Below are positions 13,069-48,441 of a stretch of 64,000 nt of DNA, in pieces (the stretch's first letter is position 1; every line of letters begins with the position of its first letter). The notes under the pieces are model-generated. The model worked only from the letters and a program-made list of their open reading frames with translations. It had not been told where the DNA came from and did no database searches. Location: NCBI GenBank assembly GCA_963676765.1, contig OY781159.1, positions 848,021 to 912,020 of the forward strand. Reading direction: 5' to 3'. The DNA is from Acholeplasmataceae bacterium. Lineage in GTDB: Bacteria > Bacillota_I > Bacilli_A > Acholeplasmatales > Acholeplasmataceae. Made by a program: the position numbers and the translations under genes.

Positions 13069-13074
13069 AGGCTA

Positions 13075-30689: not shown

Positions 30690-30718
30690 TTGACAAAATT
30701 TGAAAAGAAGTATAAAAT
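30690..30718 (+). promoter_or_regulatory. Sigma-A promoter of the fibre locus
   Basis: TTGACA-17-TAAAAT immediately before riboswitch 1. Confidence 0.75.
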
Positions 30719-30981: not shown

Positions 30982-31085
30982 ACATGTGAAAAGCAAACCC
31001 GGAGAAATCCGGTGACGCAAAGCTATAGGGCCTAAAATAGGTAGCCAGTTGCCATCAAGCGTATTTGATGACGGCTGGCTTTATT
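30982..31085 (+). ncRNA. GEMM-I riboswitch 3 (A20 variant) with terminator
   Basis: AGCAAAC-CCGGA-GAAA-TCCGG-TGACGCAAAGCTATAGGGCCT...AGGTAGCCAGTTGC; terminator AGCCAGTTGCCATCAAG...TTTGATGACGGCTGGCT-TTATT. Confidence 0.88.
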
Positions 31086-31103: not shown

Positions 31104-31826
31104 ATGAAAAGACTTTCAACCGTTACTGCAGCTAAAAAATTAACAAAAAGAAATCGCATATTTACAATCGGAATTTTAATTAGTGGTATTTTATCAGCTG
31201 TTCTTGGTGTGGTTACATTTTATGGTCAACAAGCCGGAAACTTCGTCATGAATGTCGATTATGAAGCTTACAACAGAGGAATTGTGATTGCTGATAATAG
31301 AACAATGGCTGATGCTGGTCCACAATTGATTAGTGGTTCCGTAGAAGATGCTAAAGATGTCACTTACCGTTGGTTAGACATTCAAAGTGCAGTTGAAACA
31401 GATGGAAATTTTTACGATCCTGATCTCACGTATATGGCGTACACATTCTATTTGCAAAATGCTGGTACAGAAGTAACTGATGTCATATACAGTATGAGAA
31501 TTACAGATGTTTATAAAAATTTAGATGAAGCAATAAGAGTTATTTTAATTGATGATGGCATTGAAACCATTTATCAAAAACAAGATGAAGCTGATGAATT
31601 TGGTGTTCTTCCAACTTATCCAGTTTCGATGCCAGATGCTGAAATGTTTCTAGATGATGATACAGTATTTAGAAACGTTGTTGAAAGTTTTGGACCAAAT
31701 GAAATTAGAAAGTTCACAGTAATTGTTTGGCTAGAAGGGGAGGACCCTGATACAAACGATGATATATTAGGTGGCTTAATTAAATTTAGAATGACATTTT
31801 CAATTGATGGAGATATCATTCAATGA
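31104..31826 (+). CDS. Exported pilin/TasA-like protein A (hypothetical)
   Basis: Basic N-terminus plus hydrophobic segment, acidic beta-rich body, C-terminal VWLEGEDPD; ATG after AAGGAG. Confidence 0.55.
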   Translation: MKRLSTVTAAKKLTKRNRIFTIGILISGILSAVLGVVTFYGQQAGNFVMNVDYEAYNRGIVIADNRTMADAGPQLISGSVEDAKDVTYRWLDIQSAVETDGNFYDPDLTYMAYTFYLQNAGTEVTDVIYSMRITDVYKNLDEAIRVILIDDGIETIYQKQDEADEFGVLPTYPVSMPDAEMFLDDDTVFRNVVESFGPNEIRKFTVIVWLEGEDPDTNDDILGGLIKFRMTFSIDGDIIQ

Positions 31827-32797
31827 GAAAAGTAAAATATTCGATTATCTTACTGCTCATCATGGCAATCTTATTAGGAACTGTGACTTATGCTTGGATC
31901 AGCTTATCGTTTATTAATAATATTGAAGGTATGCGTTTAACAGCAACCACTGGTGATGAATTGCAAATATCATTGGATGCTGAGCATTATAGTAGTGAAA
32001 TTTCAAATGAACAGTTAGAAGAAATCTTTGAAGATATTCGATTAACTGATGTTACAAGTATTGATGGTATTAACTTTCATACAGGCGGTTTAAGAGAAGT
32101 TGGTATTGCTGTTCCTAATCAAGATTACTTATCATTTGATCTTTATTTCCAAACAGTAGAACCGGTACATACAGTTTATTTGGCAAACAATGTATCAAAC
32201 GAAGTAAATTATGATACAGCTTCAACTGGCACATATGTTGTGTCACAAGGTGTTGAATGGACGACAAATATTGATTTTCAAAATGGTCCATCAATTGACG
32301 ATATCATTCGCGCTGGGACAAGTGACACGTATTATGGAAAACATGCAATTCGCATGAGTTTCCAAGAACTAAAAGATGAAGAAAATGTATTAGATGTTAG
32401 AGAGCAAAGTGAATTAAACACACTCATCTTCGATCCTTCAGAGGATCCTAGTAGAGGATATGGGCTCAGATATGGTGCGTATAGTTACTTCATACAAAGA
32501 ACTAGATATTATATTAGAACACCATTAGAGGAACCTAATACAATATATCACTTATCAGATGTTGATCCTACAAATCCTTATGTAACTTATGATGAAGAAT
32601 CGCTATTACTCACACTACAAGAAACAAACTTCCAAGATGGCGAAGGAAAGACATACTATCGTGGACAACTTAAAGTGAACATATGGGTTGAAGGTTGGGA
32701 TGTAGATGCGTTTGATGCCATTGATAAAGACTTAATTAGAGCGCAACTACAGTTTAAATTATTACAGTATTTAGAAGAATCACCAGTGTTGAATTAG
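31823..32797 (+). CDS. SipW-class signal peptide protein B
   Basis: Signal ends LGTVTYAW; C-terminal IWVEGWD. Confidence 0.65.
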   Translation: MRKVKYSIILLLIMAILLGTVTYAWISLSFINNIEGMRLTATTGDELQISLDAEHYSSEISNEQLEEIFEDIRLTDVTSIDGINFHTGGLREVGIAVPNQDYLSFDLYFQTVEPVHTVYLANNVSNEVNYDTASTGTYVVSQGVEWTTNIDFQNGPSIDDIIRAGTSDTYYGKHAIRMSFQELKDEENVLDVREQSELNTLIFDPSEDPSRGYGLRYGAYSYFIQRTRYYIRTPLEEPNTIYHLSDVDPTNPYVTYDEESLLLTLQETNFQDGEGKTYYRGQLKVNIWVEGWDVDAFDAIDKDLIRAQLQFKLLQYLEESPVLN

Positions 32798-32854
32798 CTT
32801 AACGAGAGTTAATTAAAATAAAAAAAGATTAAAAGATTAAAGGAGACTAGAAAA

Positions 32855-33760
32855 ATGTCAAAAATCACAAGAAAACTCGTATTATCAATTTTAACGGTTG
32901 TCTTAACAGTGGCAGCACTTGGAACGACAACATTTGCGTGGTTCACACTTACAAACACTGCAACAGTTCAATCATTTGATGCAGAAATCGTTGCCGATAC
33001 CGGTATCGAAATTGCTTTGGATAACACAGGAAATCCATTGCTATATGATTGGAAAACAACAATTACGACACAAGACGTCTATGATTATATGACGGCTGTG
33101 TATGGGGAAGATTCATTTAGATTTAATAATGTTACTACGACAAACGGTACATCATTTGCTGATCTAGAAGGTACAGTTACAACAGCTGGTTATTTAGAAT
33201 TACCAATTCATTTCCGTTCACCAGATGCTACTGAAATCTTCATGGATGCATTCACATTGACTTCAACACCATTCTCATGGACATCATCAAATGAAACATT
33301 TGTTAACGAACATGGTGATACAATTTCTGCTGGCGACTCATTTAACGTTAATGCTGCGGATGCATTCCGTATGTCAGTTACAGGTACAATTTCATCAGCT
33401 TCAGTAACAACAGCTTATGAAAATCCAACAAGTGGTACAAACTACAATTTACCACAAGATTCAAATACAACACCGCTTGATTTAATAGCTAGTGATGGAT
33501 CAGTTAGTTTCTATGAAGCAGTTACTGCTACGGAACCTAATGGTGTAACATCAGTTAGTGTTGTAAATACAATTACTGTTATTGATGGTGATGCAAATAT
33601 TCTTAAAGTTGCGGATTTAGCTGGTGGACAAAGTGGTACTGCTGGTGCAGAATACTTTGGTTCAATTACAATTAGAATTTGGTTTGAAGGTTGGGATCCT
33701 AATGCTTATAATGCTTTATTAGGTAGAATCGTATCATCAACACTTCACTTTACGGCTTAA
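32855..33760 (+). CDS. SipW-class signal peptide protein C, candidate major fibre subunit
   Basis: Signal ends LGTTTFAWF; Thr/Ser/Asp-rich; C-terminal IWFEGWD; followed by a stable RNA structure. Confidence 0.7.
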   Translation: MSKITRKLVLSILTVVLTVAALGTTTFAWFTLTNTATVQSFDAEIVADTGIEIALDNTGNPLLYDWKTTITTQDVYDYMTAVYGEDSFRFNNVTTTNGTSFADLEGTVTTAGYLELPIHFRSPDATEIFMDAFTLTSTPFSWTSSNETFVNEHGDTISAGDSFNVNAADAFRMSVTGTISSASVTTAYENPTSGTNYNLPQDSNTTPLDLIASDGSVSFYEAVTATEPNGVTSVSVVNTITVIDGDANILKVADLAGGQSGTAGAEYFGSITIRIWFEGWDPNAYNALLGRIVSSTLHFTA

Positions 33761-33781
33761 TATAATATATTAATTATGATT

Positions 33782-33843
33782 CTAGTCTGGTAAGTGTATC
33801 TGTTTATCAGATATGCTTACCAATCCTTATTGGATTAGACTAG
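33782..33843 (+). other. Intergenic three-way-junction RNA structure without U-tract
   Basis: CTAGTCT/AGACTAG encloses a 14-bp hairpin (33789-33821) and a 5-bp hairpin (33822-33836). Confidence 0.6.
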
Positions 33844-33868
33844 TTACGACTTAATAAAGGAGTTACGT

Positions 33869-34573
33869 ATGAAAGAAAACAATTGGAATGCTAAACGCAT
33901 TTTAAAATTAATTGCTAACGTTATATTTTATGCTGTTATTGTATTTCTCATGATTTTTTCAATAGCAAATATTAGAGTACAACGTGAAGATAACTTAGCT
34001 AATGTTTTCGGTGTAGGTATGCTTTCTGTACAATCTGACTCAATGAAAGGCACGTTTGAAACCGGAGATCTATTATTCGTTAGCATGTTAGGTGAAGATG
34101 ATTTTGCTAATTTGGAAATTGGTGATGTTGTCACATACTACGATACATCTTTAGAAGCTTTTAATACGCACAGAATTGTTGCGATTGACCGAGTGGAAAG
34201 AATGTTAACAACACAAGCTGATTATAACTATGAAAGTCCAGGAGATCCAACATTTGCGGATAAGTCTGTTAGCTTTGATAGTGTAATTGCAACTTATAAT
34301 GGTTCTATGATTGCTGGTTTAGGTAATTCACTTGACTACTTACAAACACCAGTCGGATTTGCTTTATTCATTATTTTGCCAGTACTTTTAGTGCTTATTT
34401 TTGAAGGTGTCTTATTAGCTAGACATGTCATGGCATTAAACCGTGAAAAACTAGAAGTAAAATATGCAGAAGAACGTGAATTGGCAGCACAAAGCATTGA
34501 ATCAGAACGTGAACGTATGCGTGCTGAAATTCTTGCTGAAATGAAGAAAGAAAAAGCTATACATGCAAATTAA
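33869..34573 (+). CDS. sipW: Signal peptidase I, SipW/archaeal (S26B) type
   Basis: SVQSDSM (Ser), GDLL, THRIV (His rather than Lys), second TM and charged tail. Confidence 0.85.
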   Translation: MKENNWNAKRILKLIANVIFYAVIVFLMIFSIANIRVQREDNLANVFGVGMLSVQSDSMKGTFETGDLLFVSMLGEDDFANLEIGDVVTYYDTSLEAFNTHRIVAIDRVERMLTTQADYNYESPGDPTFADKSVSFDSVIATYNGSMIAGLGNSLDYLQTPVGFALFIILPVLLVLIFEGVLLARHVMALNREKLEVKYAEERELAAQSIESERERMRAEILAEMKKEKAIHAN

Positions 34574-34592
34574 TTAATCAGGAGTATTTTTT

Positions 34593-36131
34593 ATGGTAGA
34601 GTTCGCTCGTTACTATATTGACCTGTTACGAAACTTTTTCATTAATGTCGGTGAATTCTTTAGTGCTGTATTTCAAGCATTCGCCGATTTCTTTGTTCGT
34701 AATGTGGGTGAATATTTTAATAGTTTTATTACTGCAACAGCACAATTTGGGCTACTTGATTGGGTCATGGCATTCGTCGTCATTGTCATCAATTTGGTCT
34801 TTTTCGTGTTTTTGATATTAAAACTCTATCAGTGGATTTCTAAATACGCGCGCTTCGTCGGGCGCGAGATAGAAAAAGACGAATTACTTGAAGAAATTGC
34901 GTTCTTAAATCAGAAAACAGTCGAACTTGTGGATGAACGTAATAAGATCTTAGCTTTAAAAGTTTCTAACTTAGGATTAAGTCCTGATGAAGAGTTAAAA
35001 GCTGAAGAAAAGATTTTGGAAGAAGAAATTAAGGAGAAAGAAGATTCTCGCTTCATCAAACTTATCGCAGTAGATGAAGAGTATAAGAACCGTGTTACAC
35101 AAATTCATATGCAAGAAGAAGACATGATTAATTTGAACGAACTTGTTACAAGGTTCATTAATTTTGCAGCAAACCGTTTAGGTTTGTTTTATAACAGACA
35201 GATCATCTCAGCATTCTTTGCTGGTATGGCTTCCTCTAAAACGATGATTTTAGAAGGGATATCTGGTACTGGTAAAACATCACTGCCTTATGCAATGGGT
35301 AAATTCTTCAACAATGACTCCCATATTATTGCCGTGCAGCCTTCATGGCGAGATCGTGCAGAAATGATGGGTTATTTAAACGAATTTACGAAACGCTTTA
35401 ATGAAACGGAGTTCCTAGAAGCGATTTATGAAACAACATATCATAACGATATAAATATCATCGTGTTAGATGAAATGAACTTGGCACGTGTTGAGTATTA
35501 TTTTGCAGAATTCTTATCACTCTTGGAAATGCCTGATAAAGATAAATGGTTAGTGGATGTTGTCCCTGATGAACTACCTTCTGATCCAGCACATCTTCAT
35601 CGTGGGAAATTATTGTTGCCGCAAAACGTCTGGTTTGTCGGTACAGCCAATAAAGATGATTCAACCTTTACCATTACCGATAAAGTATATGACCGTGCAA
35701 CTTCTATCGTTATTAATACAAAGGCAGATTACATTGATGCTCCTGAAACAAAAAGTATTACGATGAGTAATGACTACTTACAAGAATTATTTAGAGCTGC
35801 ATCAGATGAACATCAATTATCATTAAAGGCATTAAAAAATCTTGAACGCTTAGATAAATTCATTACTGAAAACTTTAAAGTCACATTTGGTAACCGTATC
35901 ATGAAACAAATTCGTGCATTCGTACCTGTATTTGTCGCATGTGGTGGTAGTGAAAATGAAGCGTTAGATTATATGGTAGCAAGAAAAATATTCAGAAAGT
36001 TTGAAGGATTGAACTTACCGTTCTTACAAAAAGAAATAAATGACTTATCAGCATTATTAGAACGATTATTTGGGAAGAACTCATTTGCTGAATGTCAAGA
36101 TTTCTTAACATCGATTAAGAAAACATTTTAA
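34593..36131 (+). CDS. Membrane-anchored McrB-like AAA+ NTPase
   Basis: Hydrophobic segment near aa 55-80; Walker A GISGTGKT, Walker B LDEMNLARVEYYF, GTANKDDST (NxxD), KVYDRA. Confidence 0.8.
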   Translation: MVEFARYYIDLLRNFFINVGEFFSAVFQAFADFFVRNVGEYFNSFITATAQFGLLDWVMAFVVIVINLVFFVFLILKLYQWISKYARFVGREIEKDELLEEIAFLNQKTVELVDERNKILALKVSNLGLSPDEELKAEEKILEEEIKEKEDSRFIKLIAVDEEYKNRVTQIHMQEEDMINLNELVTRFINFAANRLGLFYNRQIISAFFAGMASSKTMILEGISGTGKTSLPYAMGKFFNNDSHIIAVQPSWRDRAEMMGYLNEFTKRFNETEFLEAIYETTYHNDINIIVLDEMNLARVEYYFAEFLSLLEMPDKDKWLVDVVPDELPSDPAHLHRGKLLLPQNVWFVGTANKDDSTFTITDKVYDRATSIVINTKADYIDAPETKSITMSNDYLQELFRAASDEHQLSLKALKNLERLDKFITENFKVTFGNRIMKQIRAFVPVFVACGGSENEALDYMVARKIFRKFEGLNLPFLQKEINDLSALLERLFGKNSFAECQDFLTSIKKTF

Positions 36132-36145
36132 CCATTAAGGAGTAT

Positions 36146-38008
36146 GTGATGAAACATTTAAAAGAATTAAAAGAATTTCATCAAGCCATCACAAATGCTT
36201 ATTACGGCATTGAAATGGAACAATCATTTCCAAATCATTTCTATGACGCTCTTCTTTCTGGTGAAAACGAAATGTATCAAAAATCAATTACTGAAGTGAA
36301 ATCATTTCATGTTGATTGGATACCAACATTAGAATCATACTTACCATCGATTAATAAAATTATTATGGATCCGAAGTCTGGATTGCGTTATGAACAACCG
36401 GTTGTCGCTATCGAAAAAGCAAAAAAAGTGAATGCACAATCGATTCGTCATCTATCTATGCACTCTCATCTGGTTAAAGAAATCAGAGGTGATATGGTTA
36501 TTCCTAAAAAGATTATGACGACACAAGCAGAAATAGATTATGGTATTTATGAAAACCGATTTATGAAAACACTTATTCAGCGCTTGTTTGATTTTGTATT
36601 TCGCAGATACAATCTCATTAAAGCAAACATTGAATCGTTTAATAAAAGGCATTTTGATCTCAAAAGTAAATTTCAAATGCAAGATACGAATATTGATTTA
36701 GATATTCATGTTGCATTTACAGAACAGGCTGATAATGAAGCAGTCATCAAAAAAAACAATGAGATGCTACATCGGATTGAAGGACTGATGAAGCAAATCA
36801 ATGGCTTTATGTCGACAGTGTTTTGGGAAGAGATTAAAAATGTTAAACCAGTACAACCTCCAATTATGCAAACATCTATTCTCTTAAAGAATATTGACTA
36901 TAAGAACTGCTATACACTATGGTTATACCTAGATCGCTATGGCAACTTAGATTTTGATAATGACGTGAAAGAGAAGAATTTAACATTCGATCAATATTAT
37001 ACGAAAAATGTTTACCAGATTGCACTACAAACAGTCTCAATGATTTATGGTAATCAACTTGCTTTAGAAGATCATTATCAATATTTAAATGAAAAGGAAT
37101 ATCGTAGAAGAAGTCCTAAAATTATTAACAAGACATTAAATGAATTGTTAACACAAGATCAAGTTGAACAAATGGAAGACTTCACCTTAAATGAATATTT
37201 CTTAGAGCAAAGTAAAAAACAGTTTCAACAATTACTAGAAGATAAGCAAGAAGAATCATCAAGTTATGATGTTGCATTAAGAAGAGCACTTCGCGACACC
37301 ATACAAATTACAAACGCACTATTTGAATCGTATTTTGATTTAAATGATAAACCTGAAGGCGAAGACTTCATGTTTAGATCGCTTGTTAAAGAATCAACAT
37401 TTGATCAACTACAAACTGCCAGGCAAAGAGCACGTATTATGAAGATTGTTAGGGAAACAAAAGAAGTCGATTATAATAATATGATGCGTTTAGAAAAAAG
37501 AATTCTAAAAGAAATTGATTACTTAAACAAACAATATCTTGAAGAAGAGAAGGATAAAATTGAAAAAGAAGCTAAGCAAAAAGGTTTAGCAGAGAAGCTT
37601 AAACTTGAACGTCGTAATGCAGAAAAAGATCAAGCAAGAATTACACGTTATCTAAATTACGTTTCTAATCAACATAAAAAATTAGAGGCACAACATCGTA
37701 TAACAACTGAAAAAATTAGAAAAACTAGAGTTAAAGTTAAGGTCTCTGAAAAACAAATTATTGCAGCTGAAAAACGTAAGGCTAAGGCAGCGTATCATGA
37801 AGCATTAAAACGCATCCAAGAGCAGTATAAAACAGATAAAACAAAACTCCAAACACAACTTAAAAAACAACAAGAAAAGGATAAAAAGCGTTTAGAAACA
37901 CAATTGATTAATATTGAAAAAGCTTCTCGAAAACGTATTGATACAGAAAAGAAAAAGATAGAAAAACGTTATGCAAAAAAACTTAAAAAAGCGAGTAAAA
38001 ATGCGTAA
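36146..38008 (+). CDS. DUF2357-like protein with long C-terminal coiled coil; no visible nuclease
   Basis: DYGIYENRF motif; last ~170 aa Lys/Glu-rich helical; no PD-(D/E)xK or DAKY motif seen. Confidence 0.65.
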   Translation: MMKHLKELKEFHQAITNAYYGIEMEQSFPNHFYDALLSGENEMYQKSITEVKSFHVDWIPTLESYLPSINKIIMDPKSGLRYEQPVVAIEKAKKVNAQSIRHLSMHSHLVKEIRGDMVIPKKIMTTQAEIDYGIYENRFMKTLIQRLFDFVFRRYNLIKANIESFNKRHFDLKSKFQMQDTNIDLDIHVAFTEQADNEAVIKKNNEMLHRIEGLMKQINGFMSTVFWEEIKNVKPVQPPIMQTSILLKNIDYKNCYTLWLYLDRYGNLDFDNDVKEKNLTFDQYYTKNVYQIALQTVSMIYGNQLALEDHYQYLNEKEYRRRSPKIINKTLNELLTQDQVEQMEDFTLNEYFLEQSKKQFQQLLEDKQEESSSYDVALRRALRDTIQITNALFESYFDLNDKPEGEDFMFRSLVKESTFDQLQTARQRARIMKIVRETKEVDYNNMMRLEKRILKEIDYLNKQYLEEEKDKIEKEAKQKGLAEKLKLERRNAEKDQARITRYLNYVSNQHKKLEAQHRITTEKIRKTRVKVKVSEKQIIAAEKRKAKAAYHEALKRIQEQYKTDKTKLQTQLKKQQEKDKKRLETQLINIEKASRKRIDTEKKKIEKRYAKKLKKASKNA

Positions 38009-38028
38009 TTAAAAAGGAGGTTGAAACG

Positions 38029-38793
38029 ATGCATAAGTTAAAGATTAAAGAACATCGTAAATTAACGATCGTTTCACTTCTATATGTATTGTTTGCAGTA
38101 TTTATGTTAACGGTCGTAACTTATGCATGGTTTACGTTAACTGACCAGAATAGTGCTCATTTAATTGAAGCTGTTTCCGGTGTTGAAGCCGAGTATGAAT
38201 ATTATGTGTATAATGATGCATCTCACACAGGATCATTAGAACCAACACTTATTGATAATGTATCCACAACAGGCGAAAATTTAGCATATGAATATATTCC
38301 TAATCCAACCGTTGCTCATTTAATTGATGGTTATATTGCACCTGGAGAGATATTCTCGTTCGCGATTAAGATTATAAATGTTGGTACGGATATTGGTTAT
38401 TTAAATTTAAGTTTAACAAATGTATTCTCTGAAGGATTTGAACGAGAAGAAAATCGTATTCAAAATGCGTTGTATTATGAAATTACAAATATTGTTCAAA
38501 CAGATGGAGTAACGGAATCAAGTGACATTAAAGATGATGCACCTACTGTCTATTGGCAAGATTATTTAGATGATGTCGATCATAGGAGTTATCCAATGGT
38601 TAAAAATGTGCCATTAGGAGCTACACCTACAAATAGACAAACAATTATATTTTTTGATATCGTCTTTGATCCAACTGTATATGGGTTTGATATAGAAGGA
38701 GAACCTTATACTAACTCAAATATTTTCATGGGTCAAAAAGTTACCATTAATCAAATATATATGACTATTTCGCCTAATCCGGAGGTTATATGA
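38029..38793 (+). CDS. SipW-class signal peptide protein D
   Basis: Signal ends LTVVTYAWF; acidic beta-rich body. Confidence 0.65.
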   Translation: MHKLKIKEHRKLTIVSLLYVLFAVFMLTVVTYAWFTLTDQNSAHLIEAVSGVEAEYEYYVYNDASHTGSLEPTLIDNVSTTGENLAYEYIPNPTVAHLIDGYIAPGEIFSFAIKIINVGTDIGYLNLSLTNVFSEGFEREENRIQNALYYEITNIVQTDGVTESSDIKDDAPTVYWQDYLDDVDHRSYPMVKNVPLGATPTNRQTIIFFDIVFDPTVYGFDIEGEPYTNSNIFMGQKVTINQIYMTISPNPEVI

Positions 38794-39491
38794 AAAATGT
38801 TGCATCTAAAATCCTAACTGGATTTGCTATATTAATCTTCATATTAGCCATTGGGATTATGATTGCTGGAACAATCGCGATGCGTCGTAATGAACCAGTC
38901 TTCATCTTTGGTTATGCGTTAGCTGTCGTCCCAACTGAATCCATGGTGGGTGATCAAGATGATTCTCTTGATATTAATGATCTAGTTATCATTAAGCGAA
39001 TTGATATCAGTGAAGTGAATGTGGATCAACATCCAGTCATTGTTTATCAAGGGGTTGGTAATAACGGGTCCGATATTTTAATTATTCACCGTGTTGTTGA
39101 AGAGACTGAAGAGGGGTTAGTGACACAAGGCGATAATACGGAAACAAATCCGATATCTGACCAAGCAGCAGGAATACAGGATTATATAACAGCAGATAAT
39201 TTTCAAGGCATATATGCCTTTAAAATAACATTTTTAAAACCCATAGCAAATATAATGACAGATTCAAGAACAACTATATTTGCGATTATCGTTGTAATAT
39301 TAGTCATGATATTATTAACAGAACTTATTCATATTGTTAAAACAATGCATGAAAAAAAGAAAGATGACATGGCAAAACAGCATGAATCCTATATTGCATT
39401 AATGAAAGTGAAGCATCGTAGGGAAATAAAAGATGAACTTAAAAAAGAGTATATGGCAAACTTAGAGCAATCTAAGGACGCAAAGCTATAG
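38790..39491 (+). CDS. sipW: Second SipW-type signal peptidase I
   Basis: VVPTESM (Ser), IIHRVV (His), TQGDN, second TM and charged tail. Confidence 0.82.
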   Translation: MKNVASKILTGFAILIFILAIGIMIAGTIAMRRNEPVFIFGYALAVVPTESMVGDQDDSLDINDLVIIKRIDISEVNVDQHPVIVYQGVGNNGSDILIIHRVVEETEEGLVTQGDNTETNPISDQAAGIQDYITADNFQGIYAFKITFLKPIANIMTDSRTTIFAIIVVILVMILLTELIHIVKTMHEKKKDDMAKQHESYIALMKVKHRREIKDELKKEYMANLEQSKDAKL

Positions 39492-39542
39492 GGCCTTAAA
39501 GAGGTAGCCAGTTGCACCAATGATTTGGGCAGCTGGCTTTTA
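39445..39542 (+). ncRNA. c-di-GMP-I riboswitch 4 overlapping the 3' end of the second sipW CDS, with terminator
   Basis: GGCAAAC-TTAGA-GCAA-TCTAAG-GACGCAAAGCTATAGGGCCT...AGGTAGCCAGTTGC; terminator AGCCAGTTGC...GCAGCTGGCT-TTT. Confidence 0.88.
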
Positions 39543-39564
39543 TGCTTTAAAAGAAGAGGATAAT

Positions 39565-40224
39565 ATGAACAGAAAAGCAGTAGTTATCATGTTAATCTTA
39601 GCCATCTTTACACTTGTTAGTAGTGTAAGTTATGCATGGTTTACATACGTTGAGCAAAAGAGTTTAGCGTCTTTTGAAGCAGGTGTTTTATCTGTTTACA
39701 CAACAATGAATGATGAACCATTTTCAACAACTTACAATATCACAGATATTGCATATGTTGATTTTGAAAATGATGTCATCAATGATGTATCACAGACATT
39801 TGATTTAATGGCTTCTTCAAATGTCATTGACATTCAGTTAGACCCTCAATCACCACTTGCAGTGCATGAGATCACAATTAGTGAACCTACAAACCAAGAA
39901 GGATTACTCATATTGTTGATCAATGAAGGCATAAACTTAGAATCTGGAGCTCCAATCACATCTAATTACCACGATCTGATTGAGACGATTACAACCGGTT
40001 CAAGTACTGCTGAAGAGATGAGACTCGCGATTGATTTATATAATCAATCTGTACTAGATGATATTCATCAAACAGTTATGAGTACATCAGACACATTAAG
40101 CTTACAAGTGGTGGTATGGGGTGATTATAATGCATTAAGTGATCCAACTAATTATCTTGATTTAACTTTCACCTTAACAATTACAATTGATACAATTAAT
40201 GCAAAAGGAGCTGTTTCTCCATGA
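39565..40224 (+). CDS. SipW-class signal peptide protein E
   Basis: Signal ends SSVSYAWF; ATG at 39565 after GAGGA. Confidence 0.65.
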   Translation: MNRKAVVIMLILAIFTLVSSVSYAWFTYVEQKSLASFEAGVLSVYTTMNDEPFSTTYNITDIAYVDFENDVINDVSQTFDLMASSNVIDIQLDPQSPLAVHEITISEPTNQEGLLILLINEGINLESGAPITSNYHDLIETITTGSSTAEEMRLAIDLYNQSVLDDIHQTVMSTSDTLSLQVVVWGDYNALSDPTNYLDLTFTLTITIDTINAKGAVSP

Positions 40225-40901
40225 GATTAATTGATCGTATATTACTTATTGGTATGAGTATTTTACTTGTCTTAATGATTAGTGTGATTGTGACTTATGC
40301 TTACTTCCAAGTTTCAGAAACGCATGGCATTACCATTGATACTGGAGAATTTGAAGTTGAGTTAGTTGTTAAATTTAATGGAGTTACTGTTGATGTTGAT
40401 AGTAACTATTATGATAAAAATCGTGGGAAGATTATTGCTAATGCTTCTGATCCATTAAGCGATAATTATATTGAAAACATGACAATTGATCTAGTAGTTA
40501 CACCAGAAGTAGCCGCACGTATGCGGTTCAAAATTCAACAAGAATGGGAATTGCGTCGTTATTATTTAGACCAAGATACAGAAAATCCAATTGATCCGGT
40601 ATTTGAATCAATTTATCATCCTCAAAAGACGATAGCATATTACCCATATTCACTCATGATGTGGGCACCTGACTTTCCATATAGTTATGAACAAGATGGC
40701 ACTGTATATTACATGGATATTATACCCAATAGTGGTGTAGTTACGATTCCGTTAATTCATGGCGGATCACCATATACAGTACGAACAAATAGTGTGTTAT
40801 TTGAAGAGTGTTATGTGTATTTTGATATTTATATCGATCTTGTACAGGCAAACAGATTTGCTGAAGTATGGGGAATCGATCCCAATTATTTTAATGAGTA
40901 A
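40221..40901 (+). CDS. SipW-class signal peptide protein F
   Basis: Signal ends VIVTYAYF. Confidence 0.62.
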   Translation: MRLIDRILLIGMSILLVLMISVIVTYAYFQVSETHGITIDTGEFEVELVVKFNGVTVDVDSNYYDKNRGKIIANASDPLSDNYIENMTIDLVVTPEVAARMRFKIQQEWELRRYYLDQDTENPIDPVFESIYHPQKTIAYYPYSLMMWAPDFPYSYEQDGTVYYMDIIPNSGVVTIPLIHGGSPYTVRTNSVLFEECYVYFDIYIDLVQANRFAEVWGIDPNYFNE

Positions 40902-40916
40902 ATAAGGAAGGTATAT

Positions 40917-43900
40917 ATGAAACGTGTGATATCCAAAGTAACAATTATTATCTTAATCGTTACAACAACGCTTTTTATAAGCTCTTTTTTATCACGTGAT
41001 TTTGTATATGCAGATGATTATCAAGCATCATCATCTTGGACTGGTGCAGATATTGGTGTAACTCCTTTAAATGGTATAACATTTGATAGTGATTATAGAC
41101 AGTTTTCTACGGTTATTGATGATTATACGTTAGTTGATACAAATAAGACTTATGTGCTTGAAACGGCATATGATTTATACATGTTTTCAGAACTCGCAAG
41201 AGGAACTCAAAGTACGTTATATCTAAGTCTAGATTATGTGCTTGGTACAGACATAGATTACTTTGATGCATTACAAGAAAACATTGCATATTTGTTTACA
41301 CCAATTGGCTTTAATACACCATTTACTGGTACATTTGATGGCCAAGGATATGAAATAACGAATCTCATTTTTAGATCCGTTAATTCAACTGAAGATTATG
41401 ATACATATATGCCCGGTTTAATTTATTATTCAATGTTTTCAAGAATATCTGAGACAGCTATTATTGAAAATCTTGGTTTAATTAATCCACTCATTGTGCA
41501 AGCGATTGAACAAGGAGCTATGACGCATGTATCTGTATTAGTTGGTGAAAATAGAGGACTAGTTCAAAATGTTTATTATCTTGATAATAGAGGGGATTCT
41601 GCTGGTATTAATGCAGAAGGTAATTTCTTTATATCAGGTCTAGTGTCAAGAAATATAGGAACCATAACGAATGCATTTGTGTCAACGCCACATGTTAAAA
41701 GTTTAGCGGTTATTGATAATTTAGCATCTGCAGTATTAGTCTATTCAAATACTGGCACAATCTCACAAACATATTATGATGAAGATGTTTATGGGGATGA
41801 AGGAACAACCAGTATTTCAAATGGTGATGGTCTTTCAACAAGTGAATTCCAAAATGCGAGTAATTTTAATAGCGATTGGTATTTTAGTGATTCTTATAGT
41901 GGTCTAACAACTGACCCAGAACTTATAAGTCAAACAATCATTGATAGTACATATCCAACACTGCAAGGTGTTGCAGTAAATCAAAGGGTTATTGAAATTA
42001 ATGACGCTGTTGATTTTGTTTATATGAATGAATTATTAAATGTATCTGGTCTATTTAGAGCAAGTGATTATATAATTACAAGTGATATCGATATGAACCA
42101 AGTCTCACGCAAGGCTTATAAAGCTGCTAGTGTGGGTTTTTCTGGTTCTCTATCTAGTACGCTGATTAGTGCAGGGTCAACGCTTTACACGCATACGCCA
42201 GCGCAAGGTGGAACATATCAGTATCATACAATTATTGGACTAAAAATAAGTGATACGACATTGATTGGGAATTATGCTAGTTATGCACTATTTAGTTCTT
42301 TGTTTGGTAAGGTTACGCATCTTAATTTTTTGGATTATACAATTATTCCTGAAGATATTGAAATGACTGCAAATAGAGATCGCATTTTAATTGGTGGTAT
42401 TGCAGCTGCAAGTGCAAATGGTGCATTAATCGATGATGTGCATATTGATTTAACTATTGATATTCCAGAAACAACCACAGAACTTGGACAAGTTTTAGTT
42501 GGTGGTATGGTAGCTGAAGGATCTATTCAATTAGCAAATTCAAGTAGTACTGGTTTCATTGATGAATTAAGTTTGAATTATAATGCAAGATCAGATGAAT
42601 CTGTTGTTGCGGGTATGATTGGACACGCTTTTAATGTCACACTGGATCATGTATTAAATAATATGACCGTTGAAGGTCTAGGTTATCAAGATATACCTTC
42701 TGGGACAACTTATTATGGGGGTATGATTGGTTTTGGTAGTGCCATGGCAATGCATTATGTTGTAAATGTAGCTGATATCAATACACATACAAATGGTGCC
42801 ATAAATACTTCATATATTGGTGGTATTGTTGGCTATCAAACTGATTTGCTAGATCAGACGACATATATTTATAACAGCGGTAATGTTGCAACGACAATTA
42901 ATAGAGCACAGGATTATCACATGGCTGGTTATGGCACAATTGAAGATTTAGAAGATAATTTGAATATGGTATCTCTAACGAATAGTGGTGCTATTACTGT
43001 GCATCTTTCAGATACTATAACAACTAGTGATTTAATCAACATGGATGGTTATGTTTCTGGTGTTTTAATTAGTTATGCAAGTGGTACAATTACAGGTCTA
43101 TTCCAAACGAGAAATCAAGTGATTGATTTATCGGGTTTATCACATTTTGCAGGAACACTACTCGCACTTGATCAGACTGATTTAACAGTTGCTCAAGCTT
43201 ATCAAGAAGGTAATTTAACATTTGAAACGACAACTGATTTGACAAAATCAACAATGCATATCGCTTTGAATGTATTTGGAACAAATCTAAGTCAAACTCA
43301 TTTACGTCAAGAGGGTAACGCTAACTTTCATTTAACTGAAGATTCCAATGCTACTGTAACAGCTGGATCATTTTATATATATGGTGTGATTGAAGAAGTC
43401 AGTCAAGATTTTTATGCAACTGATCTATTCAATGGTGGAGACATTACAATTGATGTGGACAATGGTGTAGATCTTTTATATGATTTGTATATTGGTGGTA
43501 TTGGTTTTCACAATAGAAATACGAATTTATATGAAGAACATAATATAGATCCTGAATCTATTGATATTGAAACTGTTTCAGGATCCCTAGATACTGCACT
43601 TAATAGTGGATCAATTACAGTTCGTGGTGATTTAGATGGGCATGTGAAAGTAGCCGGAATTTTAGTGATGAATGCATCGATTGTCACAAATGCGATTAAT
43701 TTAGGTAATGTCGATGTAAGAAGTGATGCTCAAACAACAAATGATGCAATCGAGGCTGCAGGAATTGTCTACCTAATGCTTGGTGAATATGCGCAAATTA
43801 GAGATGCTGCTAACAATGGTGACATCATTGCAGTATCAGCAACATCAATTGGTTATGCACATGCTGCAGGGATTGCAGTAAGAAATGAATTAAATGAAGA

Positions 43901-46900
43901 TTTATCTGTTATTTCAACTGGCTTTAATCGACAGTTCGCGAAAATCATGTTTAGTGTAAATTATGGTGATATTTACGCATACAATGGCACAAATGAAAAT
44001 AGTTATACGATAACATCAGAAACGAGAAGTAAGGCTTCTGGAATCTTTGGTATTGGACTATTATCAGTGGTGAATAATTTCAATTATGGTAATGTCTTTA
44101 GTCGTTATTTAGGTGCTGGTATTTTTGGTTTTATTTACTATAACCGTTTTGGTTCAATTAATACGGATGAAGTCTATATTTCAAATAACATTAATTATGG
44201 TAAAGTTAGACAAGTTACTGGTTATAATACAAATAGTGGAGCATTTACATATAGTATGTATGCAACCCCAGACGAAGATGAACCATATGCTTTTGGTGCG
44301 ATGGTAGGTAAAGTTCACACTGGGACAACAGAATGGACATTCTTAGGTAATACGATGTATGCGATTGATCGCATCTATTTTGGTTATTTATTAAACTTCG
44401 ATTACAGAATTAATATGTTTGCTAGTGCACCAACACCAACATCATCATGGTATAACTTATTTGGTGGTGATTCTGATGATGCGAATCAAATCCTACTCTT
44501 AATGTTAGAGTATATGGCAACGACAAATCCAGATGATGAATCAGCTGCACCATTCACACGATTTACGACTGGTGGATGGATTAGTGGTGAATTTAGTAAA
44601 GTAATTACATATTTAAATGTTTCTGAAGCAGAAGAAGGTATGTTTTATGAGGGCTTTGGATTTAGGTCACAGCGTCCAGTTTATAGTGGTACTGACCAAT
44701 ACATTGCTGATTATATTGACTATATACCTAGAGAGAAAGTTAATCCAAATATATTGACTAGCATTGAAGCAAATACAAGTTATACATATCCTGGTATTTA
44801 TGCATTGGCTTCTTCATCAGGTATTGGAAATGGTATTTTTATTCCTGATAATTTTGATACAACAGGGTTAAATCCTTATACATTAGATAGTGCAACACCT
44901 GATGAATCATGGCTAGGAGAAACAACTGATCCAACATCCATTAGTCATGCTTTATATGATGAAATGAGACAAATTCAAGCATCGTTTGCAACGACAATTT
45001 ATAATTTGGAAATTATGCAAACGGATATTAATGGTAATCCAGTTCAAGATGGTCTAGTTTTATCAAATCCAGTTATTGATGATGAACGTGGTTTATTAAC
45101 GTATTACTTACCAAGTAATGCAGCTGTTTTAGGTGGCGTAAGTCCAACATTAACAGATATAACAACATATACTGAGGCAGGGCCTGGTGTCCCTGGTGTT
45201 AATGTCGTACCAGAAATTCCTGGTAGTGGTGAGATCGAGTATGCGTATATTGGAACACATCAAAAGAGCGGTACATCAATGATACCTATCGGACCTTATG
45301 CTTCTACAGGAATTTACAATCTATACTCCTATGATTCATATGGATATCCATATAATTCTGATTCAACGAGTACGTCCGTTTATGATTGGAAAATAGCAGA
45401 AGATGTCAGCGGAGATAGTGTTTTTTCAGGTGATATATTTAAGCATATACCACACACGAGAACTAGATTCATTTTTTGGTATATCTATGATGCTACTGGG
45501 TATAGAGTAACTACTTCAGGTGGTAGAAGACCTGCAGGTTATGGTGCATATAGAAGAATTAATTATACATATTCATGGGGGTCAACCGTTCAAATCTATG
45601 ATTATGTCGGTCCGAATCCAGTTTTAGAATCATATGTGTATTCAGGTATTATTGAAGATGTCGATATTTATCCAGAATCAAATGTTAGATTTAAAGCGAA
45701 TACGGATGAAGACTCATATATGATTTCCGAAAATGCAAGTTTAACTTATGGTGGTAGTGATGATCAAACATTAGTATCAGTTCCAAGAGCTTATGGCATT
45801 TATGAAAGTATGTATGACGGTGGTAGTTATATTGACTCTGTCAGTGACCATTATGGATCGATTCGCGTATTTTCAGCATCGTATAATGCTGCAGATCCAT
45901 CTACGTATAGAGATTATGAAATTAGGGTTATTAGAACAGCAGCAGAAACTATTTATGATATTGATTCACTTGATGTGAATGGTATGAATGGACTACCGGG
46001 ATTTTATAACCATGAGGATGTTACAAGTACAGTTGACCTATATTATGAGTATGATGGGACAAATGGCGCTATTCTTTGGACATATGATACGTATAATATG
46101 CCTGATTTGTACAATGTTATACCACTCATCGAATTATTTGATAATAACACACAAGTAAAAGTTGATTCCAGTTATTACAGGTTGACACAAGGTAATGTTA
46201 CAACCTCAGGTACGTTTAATAACCAGACTGGTAGTTGGGGTGTCGGACAAGTGACAACTAAGTTTGTTATTGAAGATGATTTTCCAAGTGGTAATTATAC
46301 ACTTCGTTTAACACTAGTTAGTGGTGGAACTTATGAAGTAACGTTTGATAAGATGGAAAGTGCGAATGCAACGATTTTATCATTCGTGTATCAAGAAGAA
46401 ACAATTACACCAACTGGTATGAGTTATACATCAAAGATTCCTTATGGCATCTATTATCAAGCAGGAAATACGGAAACTAACATTGTAAATTTCAGTAATT
46501 TGAGTGCAATTACTGATGTCTATTATACGGATATTGAAGCAAATCTTCCTTCCTATTTAGAAGGTTTAACGTTATCAACATTTACAACAATTGATGATAT
46601 TTCATTATCAATTAATGTGATTAATGGGTATCAACATCAATATACAGTTGCTTATCATTTATCAGCAGAAGATGGCTCAACTGCAATATTTACACATTAT
46701 TTAGTGGAAGAAGTAATGAGTCAAACACCAGTTAATATTTATAAAAATGGTGGTGCGTTGGCATCTATTGTTGATCCAATTGAAATTGGTTATGAGGAAG
46801 CACCAACTGTGCGTGTTGAATATCAGTTTGATCATGTATTCTTCCCGGGTGAAGAAGTGTTGAGCTTAACTTCAGGATTCACACCACTTGATGGTAGTGA

Positions 46901-48404
46901 AGTAGCAATACTCAATGAAGATTATTTTATGCAGACAATGGATGATGTAGGTTATGAAATTGACTTTGATAGAGATACACCAAAAGGCACATATCAATTT
47001 CAATTGACGTATAGTAATGAAGTGACGATTTGGGGAGAAACGATTAACTGGACATATGTTATGTCAACGGTTGAAGCAATTAAAGTTAGAAATGATAATT
47101 CACATCTTGTGAATGTATTATTCGCATCAGAATCTGTATTTGATGAAGTGTTAGACGCATTTAATACGATTATCGAAATTGATGAAGTAACACCAACTGA
47201 ATACTTACAGTATTATGATCCTGAAAATCCAACACAGCGTGAAATCGTTGCTCTTCCAACGTCAGGTATCGATTATGATGTTTATGAAGATTATCAAGCA
47301 TATTGGGTTGTTGGACAAGTACAACAAACAAATCTATCAGCATATTTACCAACATTTTATATCCCTGATGGAGCAAGCATTTATCGCGTAATTGATGAAA
47401 ATAATATTGACTATAGTTATCAATCAAATCAATTGCCTGCTGATTATGCGGATTATGGGACAGGTGAAAGCTTAAACTTTGTACACTATCGTATTTATGC
47501 AGAGGATTATGACGATAATCCAACGCATTATACGGATTATTACATTGCGGTACAAGATACAACAAACAACATTAAGTTTGATGTTACTGTCATTAATGAG
47601 ACAGATGCACGTATTGATGAAGTATTTGTGCATGTGAATGTTGCTCAAGTTTCAGTAGACTATGAAGATGAAATCACGAATGACATGATTTCGATTTCGA
47701 TGAATTTATTTAGTTATTATGATCCTGTATCATTAAGCTATACTAACAATCAATTCGTGACTTCTATGTATGGTAGGTATATGGTTCATGTGGATCTACC
47801 TGAGGGGTATACTGTTGATATTGAATTTCAACAAGCATTTATTGATGGCTCATCAATGTACTTAGAATCTTCACGCATTCCAAGACGTTATTATGTCACA
47901 ATCCATATCATAGAAGATACACCTGAAACTGCGGCATGGGGCTATCAAGATGTATTTGAGTTCCAATTAAACGAGGATGAACTTCAGCAAGATGTAACGT
48001 ATCAACCTGGTGATCGTTTTATGTATTTAGATAATACATATGAAGTACAACCTGGTTATACCTATACATATCATGGATCCAATGAGCCGAATACATTAAG
48101 TGCTATCGGTATTAGAAATGTGGATCTCTCATTTGATATTTACTCAACGTATATTACTGGTGATGTCGTTTATGACAATGGTGTATATTATCAATCACTT
48201 GGCGTCAATCAAAATGTCTTACCTAATGCAAGTAGTGTTGATACAGGTTTATGGTATGAATTATCAACCGATTGGTTAAGTTATAATCATTATGATGTTG
48301 GTGATCGTGTTTATTACAATAGTAATTATTACATCGCAATTACCAGCTCGCACAATGCAAATCCAGAAACAAGTCCACTTGCATGGACATTAGAAATTAT
48401 GTAA
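40917..48404 (+). CDS. Giant secreted adhesin-like protein (GLUG/M26-like N-terminal repeats; three C-terminal CBM5/12-like modules)
   Basis: Signal ending VYA-DD; FTGTFDGQGYEITNL and repeated GG(I/M)(V/I)G motifs; YQPGDRFMY, YITGDVVYDNGVYY, YDVGDRVYYNSNYY...W; no C-terminal anchor. Confidence 0.65.
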   Translation: MKRVISKVTIIILIVTTTLFISSFLSRDFVYADDYQASSSWTGADIGVTPLNGITFDSDYRQFSTVIDDYTLVDTNKTYVLETAYDLYMFSELARGTQSTLYLSLDYVLGTDIDYFDALQENIAYLFTPIGFNTPFTGTFDGQGYEITNLIFRSVNSTEDYDTYMPGLIYYSMFSRISETAIIENLGLINPLIVQAIEQGAMTHVSVLVGENRGLVQNVYYLDNRGDSAGINAEGNFFISGLVSRNIGTITNAFVSTPHVKSLAVIDNLASAVLVYSNTGTISQTYYDEDVYGDEGTTSISNGDGLSTSEFQNASNFNSDWYFSDSYSGLTTDPELISQTIIDSTYPTLQGVAVNQRVIEINDAVDFVYMNELLNVSGLFRASDYIITSDIDMNQVSRKAYKAASVGFSGSLSSTLISAGSTLYTHTPAQGGTYQYHTIIGLKISDTTLIGNYASYALFSSLFGKVTHLNFLDYTIIPEDIEMTANRDRILIGGIAAASANGALIDDVHIDLTIDIPETTTELGQVLVGGMVAEGSIQLANSSSTGFIDELSLNYNARSDESVVAGMIGHAFNVTLDHVLNNMTVEGLGYQDIPSGTTYYGGMIGFGSAMAMHYVVNVADINTHTNGAINTSYIGGIVGYQTDLLDQTTYIYNSGNVATTINRAQDYHMAGYGTIEDLEDNLNMVSLTNSGAITVHLSDTITTSDLINMDGYVSGVLISYASGTITGLFQTRNQVIDLSGLSHFAGTLLALDQTDLTVAQAYQEGNLTFETTTDLTKSTMHIALNVFGTNLSQTHLRQEGNANFHLTEDSNATVTAGSFYIYGVIEEVSQDFYATDLFNGGDITIDVDNGVDLLYDLYIGGIGFHNRNTNLYEEHNIDPESIDIETVSGSLDTALNSGSITVRGDLDGHVKVAGILVMNASIVTNAINLGNVDVRSDAQTTNDAIEAAGIVYLMLGEYAQIRDAANNGDIIAVSATSIGYAHAAGIAVRNELNEDLSVISTGFNRQFAKIMFSVNYGDIYAYNGTNENSYTITSETRSKASGIFGIGLLSVVNNFNYGNVFSRYLGAGIFGFIYYNRFGSINTDEVYISNNINYGKVRQVTGYNTNSGAFTYSMYATPDEDEPYAFGAMVGKVHTGTTEWTFLGNTMYAIDRIYFGYLLNFDYRINMFASAPTPTSSWYNLFGGDSDDANQILLLMLEYMATTNPDDESAAPFTRFTTGGWISGEFSKVITYLNVSEAEEGMFYEGFGFRSQRPVYSGTDQYIADYIDYIPREKVNPNILTSIEANTSYTYPGIYALASSSGIGNGIFIPDNFDTTGLNPYTLDSATPDESWLGETTDPTSISHALYDEMRQIQASFATTIYNLEIMQTDINGNPVQDGLVLSNPVIDDERGLLTYYLPSNAAVLGGVSPTLTDITTYTEAGPGVPGVNVVPEIPGSGEIEYAYIGTHQKSGTSMIPIGPYASTGIYNLYSYDSYGYPYNSDSTSTSVYDWKIAEDVSGDSVFSGDIFKHIPHTRTRFIFWYIYDATGYRVTTSGGRRPAGYGAYRRINYTYSWGSTVQIYDYVGPNPVLESYVYSGIIEDVDIYPESNVRFKANTDEDSYMISENASLTYGGSDDQTLVSVPRAYGIYESMYDGGSYIDSVSDHYGSIRVFSASYNAADPSTYRDYEIRVIRTAAETIYDIDSLDVNGMNGLPGFYNHEDVTSTVDLYYEYDGTNGAILWTYDTYNMPDLYNVIPLIELFDNNTQVKVDSSYYRLTQGNVTTSGTFNNQTGSWGVGQVTTKFVIEDDFPSGNYTLRLTLVSGGTYEVTFDKMESANATILSFVYQEETITPTGMSYTSKIPYGIYYQAGNTETNIVNFSNLSAITDVYYTDIEANLPSYLEGLTLSTFTTIDDISLSINVINGYQHQYTVAYHLSAEDGSTAIFTHYLVEEVMSQTPVNIYKNGGALASIVDPIEIGYEEAPTVRVEYQFDHVFFPGEEVLSLTSGFTPLDGSEVAILNEDYFMQTMDDVGYEIDFDRDTPKGTYQFQLTYSNEVTIWGETINWTYVMSTVEAIKVRNDNSHLVNVLFASESVFDEVLDAFNTIIEIDEVTPTEYLQYYDPENPTQREIVALPTSGIDYDVYEDYQAYWVVGQVQQTNLSAYLPTFYIPDGASIYRVIDENNIDYSYQSNQLPADYADYGTGESLNFVHYRIYAEDYDDNPTHYTDYYIAVQDTTNNIKFDVTVINETDARIDEVFVHVNVAQVSVDYEDEITNDMISISMNLFSYYDPVSLSYTNNQFVTSMYGRYMVHVDLPEGYTVDIEFQQAFIDGSSMYLESSRIPRRYYVTIHIIEDTPETAAWGYQDVFEFQLNEDELQQDVTYQPGDRFMYLDNTYEVQPGYTYTYHGSNEPNTLSAIGIRNVDLSFDIYSTYITGDVVYDNGVYYQSLGVNQNVLPNASSVDTGLWYELSTDWLSYNHYDVGDRVYYNSNYYIAITSSHNANPETSPLAWTLEIM

Positions 48405-48409
48405 AAGAA

Positions 48410-48441
48410 AAAAGGTTATTAGCAGATGCTAATAGCCTTTT
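48410..48441. terminator. Bidirectional intrinsic terminator
   Basis: AAAAGGTTATTAGCA-ga-TGCTAATAGCCTTTT between convergent genes. Confidence 0.85.

Follow-up and report, generated by a model that had tools for sequence, protein, structure and literature searches.

Among the known systems in which a SipW-type signal peptidase is encoded among its substrates is the tapA-sipW-tasA operon of Bacillus subtilis, which gives rise to the TasA donor-strand biofilm fibre (Protein Data Bank (PDB) entry 8aur; PMC9674648, PMC10151520). The TasA donor strand comprises the first 11 mature residues (28-38), with F29, at position 2, as a key contact (PMC9674648). SipW processes TasA with an aromatic P2' residue, and LepB-type enzymes cut such sites poorly (PMC10269814). 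The sipW-bsaA-bsaB-bsaC (Bsa) locus of Clostridium perfringens combines SipW with several TasA-like paralogs and one large exported accessory protein; a disordered N-terminal loop is predicted to enter the neighboring subunit, and the polymer is reported to be anchored in the membrane, not in peptidoglycan (PMC7395162; bioRxiv 10.1101/2024.11.04.621531). A further system, CoCoPALM, was named in two sentences by Bell et al. (2024), who deferred its analysis; it is defined by an McrB GTPase with an NxD (not NxxD) motif, an FtsB-like transmembrane (TM) segment, and a coiled coil, by an McrC homolog with a coiled coil, and by association with signal peptidases (PMC11090510). Here, we describe a locus that shares features with all three, located in a 64,000-nucleotide stretch of DNA (hereafter, the window) from an Acholeplasmataceae bacterium (contig OY781159.1, positions 848,021 to 912,020), a wall-less, Acholeplasma-like host whose genome is a single 1.56-Mb contig. 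The locus encodes six exported proteins (G1-G6), two SipW-type signal peptidases (SP1 and SP2), an McrB-like GTPase, an McrC-like protein, and a giant protein (Table 1).

The six proteins are probably SipW-cleaved subunits of a membrane-anchored, donor-strand (TasA-like) fibre, in which G3 would be the major subunit and G1 an anchor that is not cleaved; G4-G6 would form a TasA-like module associated with the giant, a putative adhesin. Both cleavage and polymerization are proposed here from the genes, their motifs, and two monomer models. The gene order G1-G2-G3-SP1-GTPase-(McrC-like)-G4-(SP2)-G5-G6-giant is fixed in 80 related loci, which fall into two variants: a long one, as in the window, and a short one, common in this lineage, which is devoid of the McrC-like gene and SP2 and encodes a giant of ~1830 aa. 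In many relatives, short and long operons lie in tandem, ~14-15 kb apart on one contig (e.g., loci L009/L010, L013/L022, L016/L045, L017/L035, L030/L066, and others), so the lineage keeps two complete paralogous systems; only the long variant is present in the genome analyzed here.

All six proteins start with a basic N-region running into a hydrophobic span of about 20 residues. In G2-G6, the span is followed by (T/S)-(Y/F)-A, the proposed cut, and (W/Y)-(F/I); the signal endings quoted for these five proteins in the first-pass annotation of this DNA, as well as TFYG in G1, are all present in the sequence. When all 1786 open reading frames (ORFs) of 80 aa or more encoded by the genome were scanned for [ST][YFLW]A[WYF][FIL] after a hydrophobic stretch and within the first 90 residues, G2-G6 were returned and no other protein. 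Among the orthologs (44-75 per gene), position -1 is alanine in 86-100% of those of G2-G6, position -3 is T, S, V, A, or I, position -2 is Y or F, position +1 is W (Y in G6), and position +2 is F, I, L, or Y. This pattern obeys the -3/-1 rule that applies to type I signal peptidases, with aromatic residues coming next. Small residues at -3 and -1 and aromatic residues past the cut support the assignment of the G2-G6 signals to the SipW-substrate style and, with two SipW-type peptidases in the same operon, bear out what had been proposed from the sequence earlier. At the motif position, G1 orthologs carry F-Y-G, with glycine in 69 of 69; in G1 itself, the N-region is charged +7 and the hydrophobic span is 23 residues long. 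Devoid of a cleavable alanine, G1 would stay in the membrane, and we predict that it is an uncleaved signal anchor and a candidate membrane base of the fibre. Relative to the remaining protein, the first 22 mature residues are better conserved in five of the six ortholog families.

Two other assignments of the six proteins were tried and rejected. A type IV pilin reading was rejected because the conserved motif follows the hydrophobic span and does not precede it; in all six, the basic N-region passes directly into this span, with no G-F-T-L-x-E. A metalloprotease reading, prompted by the name camelysin attached to PF12389, was likewise rejected, since neither HExxH nor HxxEH was found in any of the six and G1 contains no histidine.

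SP1 matches NF046067 (1.3e-20) and exceeds the cut-off of TIGR02228 (63.2 vs 51.85 bits), whereas SP2 stays below the latter (34.3 bits, 1.9e-8); the two proteins align in hhalign with a probability of 99.8%. In 69 related loci, the SP1 gene immediately precedes that of the GTPase; SP2 and the McrC-like gene are found in the long variant only. Since a separate LepB-type peptidase is encoded elsewhere in the genome, the operon peptidases appear to be dedicated ones. A second SipW locus lies outside the window (C1:490741-495443; locus L099, 2241-6944) behind a cyclic di-GMP (c-di-GMP)-I aptamer scoring 58.4 bits. It encodes exported proteins of 196, 177, and 435 aa with the signals AIAYW, TFAYW, and TFGYF, followed by three SipW-like ORFs. 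Four CBM_5_12 repeats (PF02839, 1.5e-10) are present in the 435-aa protein, which also has a weak phmmer match (8.4e-7) to the giant of the window.

Comparison of ortholog profiles with hhalign divides the six proteins into two groups. The alignment of G2 with G3 spans the whole of both proteins (99.9%, E 1.5e-35), and G1 aligns with G2 (93.6%) and G3 (93.0%) across most of the mature part; within this trio, mature parts compared with each other give probabilities of 93-99.8%. The C-terminal motif W-x-E-G-x-D, noted earlier as WLEGED, WVEGWD, and WFEGWD in G1, G2, and G3, respectively, is present near the C-terminus of each and is invariant or nearly so in their orthologs. By profile comparison, G1, G2, and G3 are true paralogs of one new family. 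For G4, G5, and G6, alignments with G1-G3 or among themselves are limited to the first 30-50 residues, and their mature bodies show no similarity detectable by hhalign to each other or to G1-G3. What all six share is therefore the export signal and the very mature N-terminus, not the body. The earlier description of six paralogs thus holds for G1-G3 and fails for G4-G6, and the proposed division into two subunit classes, G1-G3 and G4-G6, is supported.

An exhaustive hidden Markov model (HMM) search with the G1-G3 family returned 1629 cluster representatives at E <= 1e-3. It occurs in 21 of the 24 additional genomes sampled from the same taxonomic family and in 11 of 17 from the same order. Beyond the order, the class yielded two weak matches, and the other genomes of the 301 sampled across the phylum yielded none. 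As judged from this sampling, the family does not extend beyond Acholeplasmatales. Surface domains, either Flg_new (Listeria-Bacteroides repeats) or Big_2 (immunoglobulin (Ig)-like), are found at the C-terminus of some G3-family members. Structure prediction with AlphaFold2 (AF2) covered G3 and G4. The G3 model (pLDDT, the score of the predicted local distance difference test, 86.2) has an N-terminal helix, corresponding to the signal, and a beta-rich body; residues 25-46 have a pLDDT below 50, yet T26-T31, F41, D48, G50, and I51 are invariant in orthologs.

The distal trio may be best described as three divergent TasA-superfamily proteins, given the fold match of G4 and the profile matches of G6 and G5. 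The G4 model (pLDDT 86.4) had a single match at E <= 1e-3 in a Foldseek search of the PDB, namely the TasA fibre solved by cryo-electron microscopy (8aur_A, E 4.4e-4, probability 1.00); FimG (E 0.022) and the cannula subunit 9h8b (E 0.024) were not significant. The mature N-terminus of G4 is modeled with low confidence. In a word-indexed search with the G4 profile, the family ended sharply at Acholeplasmatales and contained no Pfam-annotated members. A G4 homolog with 67% identity (protein P0196) is filed under the transcriptome of Anaeramoeba ignava ('Anaeramoba' in EukProt); it most likely derives from an Acholeplasma-like associate or contaminant of the culture. The G6 profile aligns with an Acholeplasma TasA-like family, A5, over 165 columns (hhalign 95.2%, E 2.4e-8). 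Family A5 passes both PF12389 and TIGR04088, and one source names it 'alternate signal-mediated exported protein, CPF_0494 family'; G6 also shows a weak N-terminal match to the BsaA family TIGR04090 (E 0.025). On these profile matches, G6 is a probable divergent member of the TasA/CPF_0494-like family. The first mature strand of G5, SFEAGVLSV, resembles those of TasA-like families, and the G5 HMM matches a 218-aa protein of a compact TasA-like locus (4e-21) that itself falls just under the PF12389 cut-off. G5 ends in a conserved W-G-D-Y-(D/N)-A-L-S-D-P motif at the position equivalent to W-x-E-G-x-D, with W186, D188, and Y189 each conserved in at least 90%. The split into proteins with and without W-x-E-G-x-D is therefore not quite clean: the motif is absent from G4 and G6, as stated earlier for all three distal proteins, whereas G5 has this related form. 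Divergent membership in the TasA superfamily is thus moderately supported for G4, modestly for G6, and weakly for G5.

Expression of the locus appears to be governed by c-di-GMP. The three tandem upstream aptamers score 55.3, 57.6, and 60.6 bits against RF01051 (gathering score 35). The fourth (59.8 bits) overlaps the 3' end of SP2 and precedes G5, which places G5, G6, and the giant of this variant behind their own riboswitch. Two GGDEF-EAL proteins are encoded upstream of the locus, and a promoter-like site (30690) and a terminator-like hairpin (48410) bracket the operon. Another hairpin lies between G3 and SP1, and each of the 69 relatives with a foldable gap has a strong one there (median gap length 104 nt, median minimum free energy -29.7 kcal/mol); the stem sequences vary between relatives and still pair. 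In the long variant, the stem is formed by GGTAAGTG...CACTTACC, and in the short variant by other GC-rich stems; a second small hairpin, AATCC...GGATT, often follows the main one, which matched no Rfam family at the gathering score. A hairpin after one structural gene is a usual means of over-producing a major subunit. Remaining intergenic gaps are short, except for G2-G3 (~58 nt) and SP2-G5, which holds the fourth aptamer, and 4-nt overlaps join G1/G2, G4/SP2, and G5/G6. The giant starts 15 nt after G6 and has an ordinary Sec-type signal (VYA-DD) and no anchor; no Pfam domain was found in it. All six G proteins are acidic (isoelectric point 4.1-4.4) and cysteine-free, except for one cysteine in G6.

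We propose that the products of the six genes are the exported, structural part of an apparatus, induced by c-di-GMP, that forms a surface fibre or matrix. The precursors would be inserted by Sec and cut by SP1 or SP2 after the alanine, so that mature proteins start with W-F-T-x-(T/V), and the N-terminal ~20 mature residues, which in the G3 and G4 models do not pack against their own body, would serve as a donor strand that, as happens in TasA, inserts into the beta-sandwich of the following subunit. G3 may be the abundant subunit, because it is the most conserved, because the conserved hairpin follows its gene, and because relatives carry extra C-terminal Ig-like or Listeria-Bacteroides-repeat domains; G2 would be a minor paralog. 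G1 may tether or nucleate the polymer, a role held elsewhere by TapA or the cell wall, and the mutually dissimilar G4-G6, translationally coupled to the giant, could form a second module linking or presenting this candidate adhesin. The shaft, adaptor, and tip roles suggested in the first-pass annotation are likewise hypothetical. The membrane NxD GTPase would act from the cytoplasmic side.

Several observations weigh against a TasA-like fibre of cleaved subunits. The HMM searches suggested by the first-pass annotation failed: in a six-frame search of the whole genome, the best TIGR04088 score was 14.5 bits (cut-off 19) and PF12389 gave 13.9-14.4 bits (cut-off 22.5), in both cases from the G3 signal only, and hmmscan of the six proteins returned no TIGR04088 match at E <= 1. 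None of the six attains any Pfam or NCBIfam cut-off, that of TasA (NF046066) included. Of the two modeled proteins, only G4 resembled TasA in the structural comparison suggested at the same time, and even there the TM-score is only 0.36/0.38. For G3, Foldseek found no match at E <= 1e-3 in the PDB and a viral library: TasA was not among the top 50 PDB matches, the archaeal bundling pilin AbpA (7ueg, E 0.64) and FimG, PapE, and CfaB (E 0.045-0.85) were not significant (TM-scores 0.12-0.23), and the top donor-strand pilin matches, the Sulfolobus thread among them, had TM-scores of only 0.1-0.25 and were not counted. Profile searches of the PDB with the G3, G4, G5, and G6 alignments gave nothing meaningful, and the mature G1-G3 profiles reached probabilities of only 0.2-3% with family A5. 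The match of G6 to A5 drops to 52% once the signal is removed, and that of G5 (81.6%) covers only the N-terminal 50 residues, i.e., the signal and first strand. In addition, the hydrophobic region of the G3 signal is more conserved than the mature body (mean majority frequency 0.74 vs 0.56), which could mean retention, and the predicted G4 helix continues straight across the proposed cut site, TYAWFTLTDQ. These last two observations, together with TM-length hydrophobic spans (23-27 residues), a wall-less cell that has only its membrane to hold surface proteins, and the clearly non-cleavable form of the motif in G1, would suit six bitopic N-in/C-out proteins that coat the cell or form a platform for the giant. 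YAWF would then be an aromatic belt at the membrane interface, and SipW would act on other substrates or be non-catalytic. We regard such retention as unlikely, since the near-invariant alanine at -1 and the small or beta-branched residue at -3 are needed by a type I peptidase and not by a membrane interface, and the sole divergent paralog, G1, differs at exactly the -1 residue. Moreover, dedicated SipW genes lie inside the operon (two in the long variant and one in the short), and Acholeplasma proteins scoring above the TIGR04088 and PF12389 cut-offs have signals of the same xAW(F/L/V) style. Alternatively, the proteins might be cleaved and exported without polymerizing. As matrix, chaperone, or adaptor proteins, either soluble or loosely bound, they would fold the giant, escort it, or dock it, with G1-G3 and G4-G6 as two accessory sets. 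In favor of this, G4, G5, and G6 each occur in one copy, do not resemble each other, and are closely coupled to the gene of the giant, G3 matches no known polymerizing fold, and the TasA relative BsaB of C. perfringens forms dimers only (bioRxiv 10.1101/2024.11.04.621531). This explanation seems to us quite improbable in view of the conserved yet unstructured mature N-terminus, a hallmark of strand donors, of the post-G3 hairpin, which suggests that one component is made in excess, and of the G3-family members with extra adhesin-type domains, like those of fibre subunits.

A TasA-like fibre does not account for the GTPase. It is found in all related loci and lies between SP1 and G4 in every sufficiently long one, with gaps of 11-24 nt around it; to our knowledge, TasA-type fibres need no nucleoside triphosphatase (NTPase), so its universal linkage counts against the fibre proposal. 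Its Walker A (GISGTGKT), Walker B (LDEMN), and NKDD (within GTANKDDSTF, an NxD motif) sequences are invariant in 67 orthologs, and residues ~55-80 are hydrophobic and followed by a charged, heptad-like stretch. The McrC-like protein has a DUF2357 domain (PF09823, 3.7e-13), its sole domain match, and a Lys/Glu-rich tail; no nuclease domain was detected in it. A match of the GTPase to PDC-M26A, a 'phage defence candidate' model of PADLOC (1e-42), and a weak one to McrB structures, together with the DUF2357 domain of its partner, could indicate that the pair is an anti-phage defence module inserted here without relation to the six proteins, and that the region is made of two or three independent gene sets. 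We consider this highly improbable: the fixed position and spacing of the GTPase, its TM segment, and the absence of a detected nuclease domain from its partner speak against it, and GTPases of this clade are regularly linked to signal peptidases (Bell et al., 2024; PMC11090510). The defence-island reading of the pair was rejected because of synteny. As a separate observation, the good match of the present GTPase suggests that CoCoPALM GTPases without a role in defence may belong to, or be mistaken for, the PDC-M26A family. With its NKDD GTPase and DUF2357 coiled-coil partner, the locus fits the CoCoPALM type, of which the six exported proteins would be the hitherto undescribed substrates. A more far-reaching reading would make the GTPase part of the assembly. 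G1-G3 would then be a new pilin class in a membrane-rooted, NTPase-assisted donor-strand pilus, built with the TasA-like trio, SipW, and the restriction-derived GTPase, and presenting the giant adhesin when c-di-GMP rises; G1 would be the uncleaved root, G3 the shaft, and G4-G6 the tip adaptor, and the GTPase would be the gate or motor for the release of subunits from the membrane. We know of no TasA-type, chaperone-usher, or sortase pilus that uses an NTPase step for this release, and offer this version only as a doubtful extension of the proposed fibre.

Compared with tapA-sipW-tasA, the locus likewise encodes a SipW-type peptidase among its proposed substrates, which, like TasA, have a small residue at -1, an aromatic P2' residue, and a conserved, putatively strand-forming mature N-terminal segment. 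A minor anchoring or nucleating partner may also be common to both, TapA there and G1 here, and the best structural match of G4 is the TasA fibre itself. In contrast to TasA, the six proteins fall short of the PF12389, TasA, and TIGR04088 cut-offs, and G1-G3 have no detectable link to it; the host, unlike B. subtilis, is wall-less, the membrane McrB-like GTPase and the 2495-aa protein are fixed parts of the operon, and control is by c-di-GMP riboswitches, whereas it is by SinR in B. subtilis. With the Bsa system of C. perfringens, the locus shares SipW, TasA-like proteins, and one large accessory exported protein; the proposed donor segment and membrane anchorage would likewise have counterparts in the predicted loop insertion and the membrane-held polymer of that system. 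It differs in that the large partner has no vWA domain or other Pfam match, in that the G1-G3 family has no counterpart there, and in that the locus contains no type IV pilus machinery (the genome was not searched for a prepilin peptidase). The correspondence with CoCoPALM comprises the NxD McrB GTPase with a putative N-terminal TM and coiled-coil segment (the hydrophobic and heptad-like stretches), the McrC homolog with DUF2357 and a putative coiled coil, and the adjacent signal peptidase genes. The exported proteins, their two classes, the giant, and the c-di-GMP control go beyond the main text of that report (PMC11090510), and the short variant common in this lineage, devoid of the McrC homolog and second peptidase, departs from CoCoPALM as named. 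A further related system consists of compact Acholeplasmataceae loci with two or three SipW and three TasA-like genes. Their signals have the same style (IFAWV, VLAWL, and VFAWF), the G5 and G6 profiles match their members, and the second such locus in this genome is also located behind a c-di-GMP-I aptamer. Unlike the proteins described here, their members pass PF12389 and TIGR04088, and these loci contain neither the G1-G3 family nor the GTPase nor the giant. In the literature searched, we found no paper linking SipW or TasA with Acholeplasma or with c-di-GMP riboswitches, and the description of Peloplasma reports no appendages.

Table 1. Features of the locus. Positions are those of the window, with position 1 as its first nucleotide.
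Feature	Position	Strand	Evidence
Promoter-like site TTGACA-17-TAAAAT, ahead of the riboswitch array	30690..30718	+	Consensus match only
Three tandem c-di-GMP-I aptamers	30727-30801, 30847-30921, 30982-31056	+	Rfam RF01051
G1, 240 aa; VVTFYG-QQ; C-terminal WLEGEDPDT	31104..31826	+	ORF, hhalign, orthologs
G2, 324 aa; TYA-WI; WVEGWD	31823..32797	+	ORF, hhalign, orthologs
G3, 301 aa; TFA-WF; WFEGWD	32855..33760	+	ORF, AF2, orthologs
15-bp hairpin directly 3' of G3; candidate attenuator or mRNA stabilizer	33788..33822	+	Folding
SP1, SipW-type (archaeal-type) signal peptidase I	33869..34573	+	HMM match
Membrane-anchored McrB-like GTPase: TM segment, coiled coil, AAA_5	34593..36131	+	HMM, conserved motifs
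McrC-like protein: DUF2357 N-domain, Lys-rich coiled-coil tail	36146..38008	+	PF09823, 3.7e-13
G4, 254 aa; TYA-WF	38029..38793	+	ORF, AF2, Foldseek
SP2, second SipW-type signal peptidase	38790..39491	+	TIGR02228 below cut-off; hhalign to SP1
Fourth c-di-GMP-I aptamer	39445..39519	+	Rfam RF01051, 59.8 bits
G5, 219 aa; SYA-WF; true ATG at 39565	39565..40224	+	ORF, hhalign
G6, 226 aa; TYA-YF	40221..40901	+	ORF, hhalign
Giant protein, 2495 aa, candidate adhesin cargo	40917..48404	+	ORF, Sec-type signal
Terminator-like hairpin at the operon end	48410..48441	+	Folding

Elsewhere in the window, a fluoride riboswitch (13067-13138; 36.6 bits vs gathering score 34) and a transfer-messenger RNA gene (56386-56729; tag GNQRLSYAA) were identified, both ordinary.

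Donor-strand fibres of the TasA type are known from walled Bacillota and archaea, and we know of no mechanism by which a wall-less bacterium builds and holds a surface fibre. The locus described here provides a parts list for such a structure: a paralog that may be the uncleaved anchor, a family of over 1600 sequence clusters that is new and lacks a Pfam or NCBIfam model, three TasA-like proteins that are divergent, and, as putative cargo, the giant protein. It links these proposed fibre parts with c-di-GMP riboswitches and with the CoCoPALM GTPase, so far unstudied, and it supplies likely substrates for forthcoming work on CoCoPALM, as well as a case that can be tested in the cultivable hosts Acholeplasma and Peloplasma. 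If it is true that the GTPase aids assembly, a restriction-enzyme motor would have been recruited to surface-fibre biogenesis.

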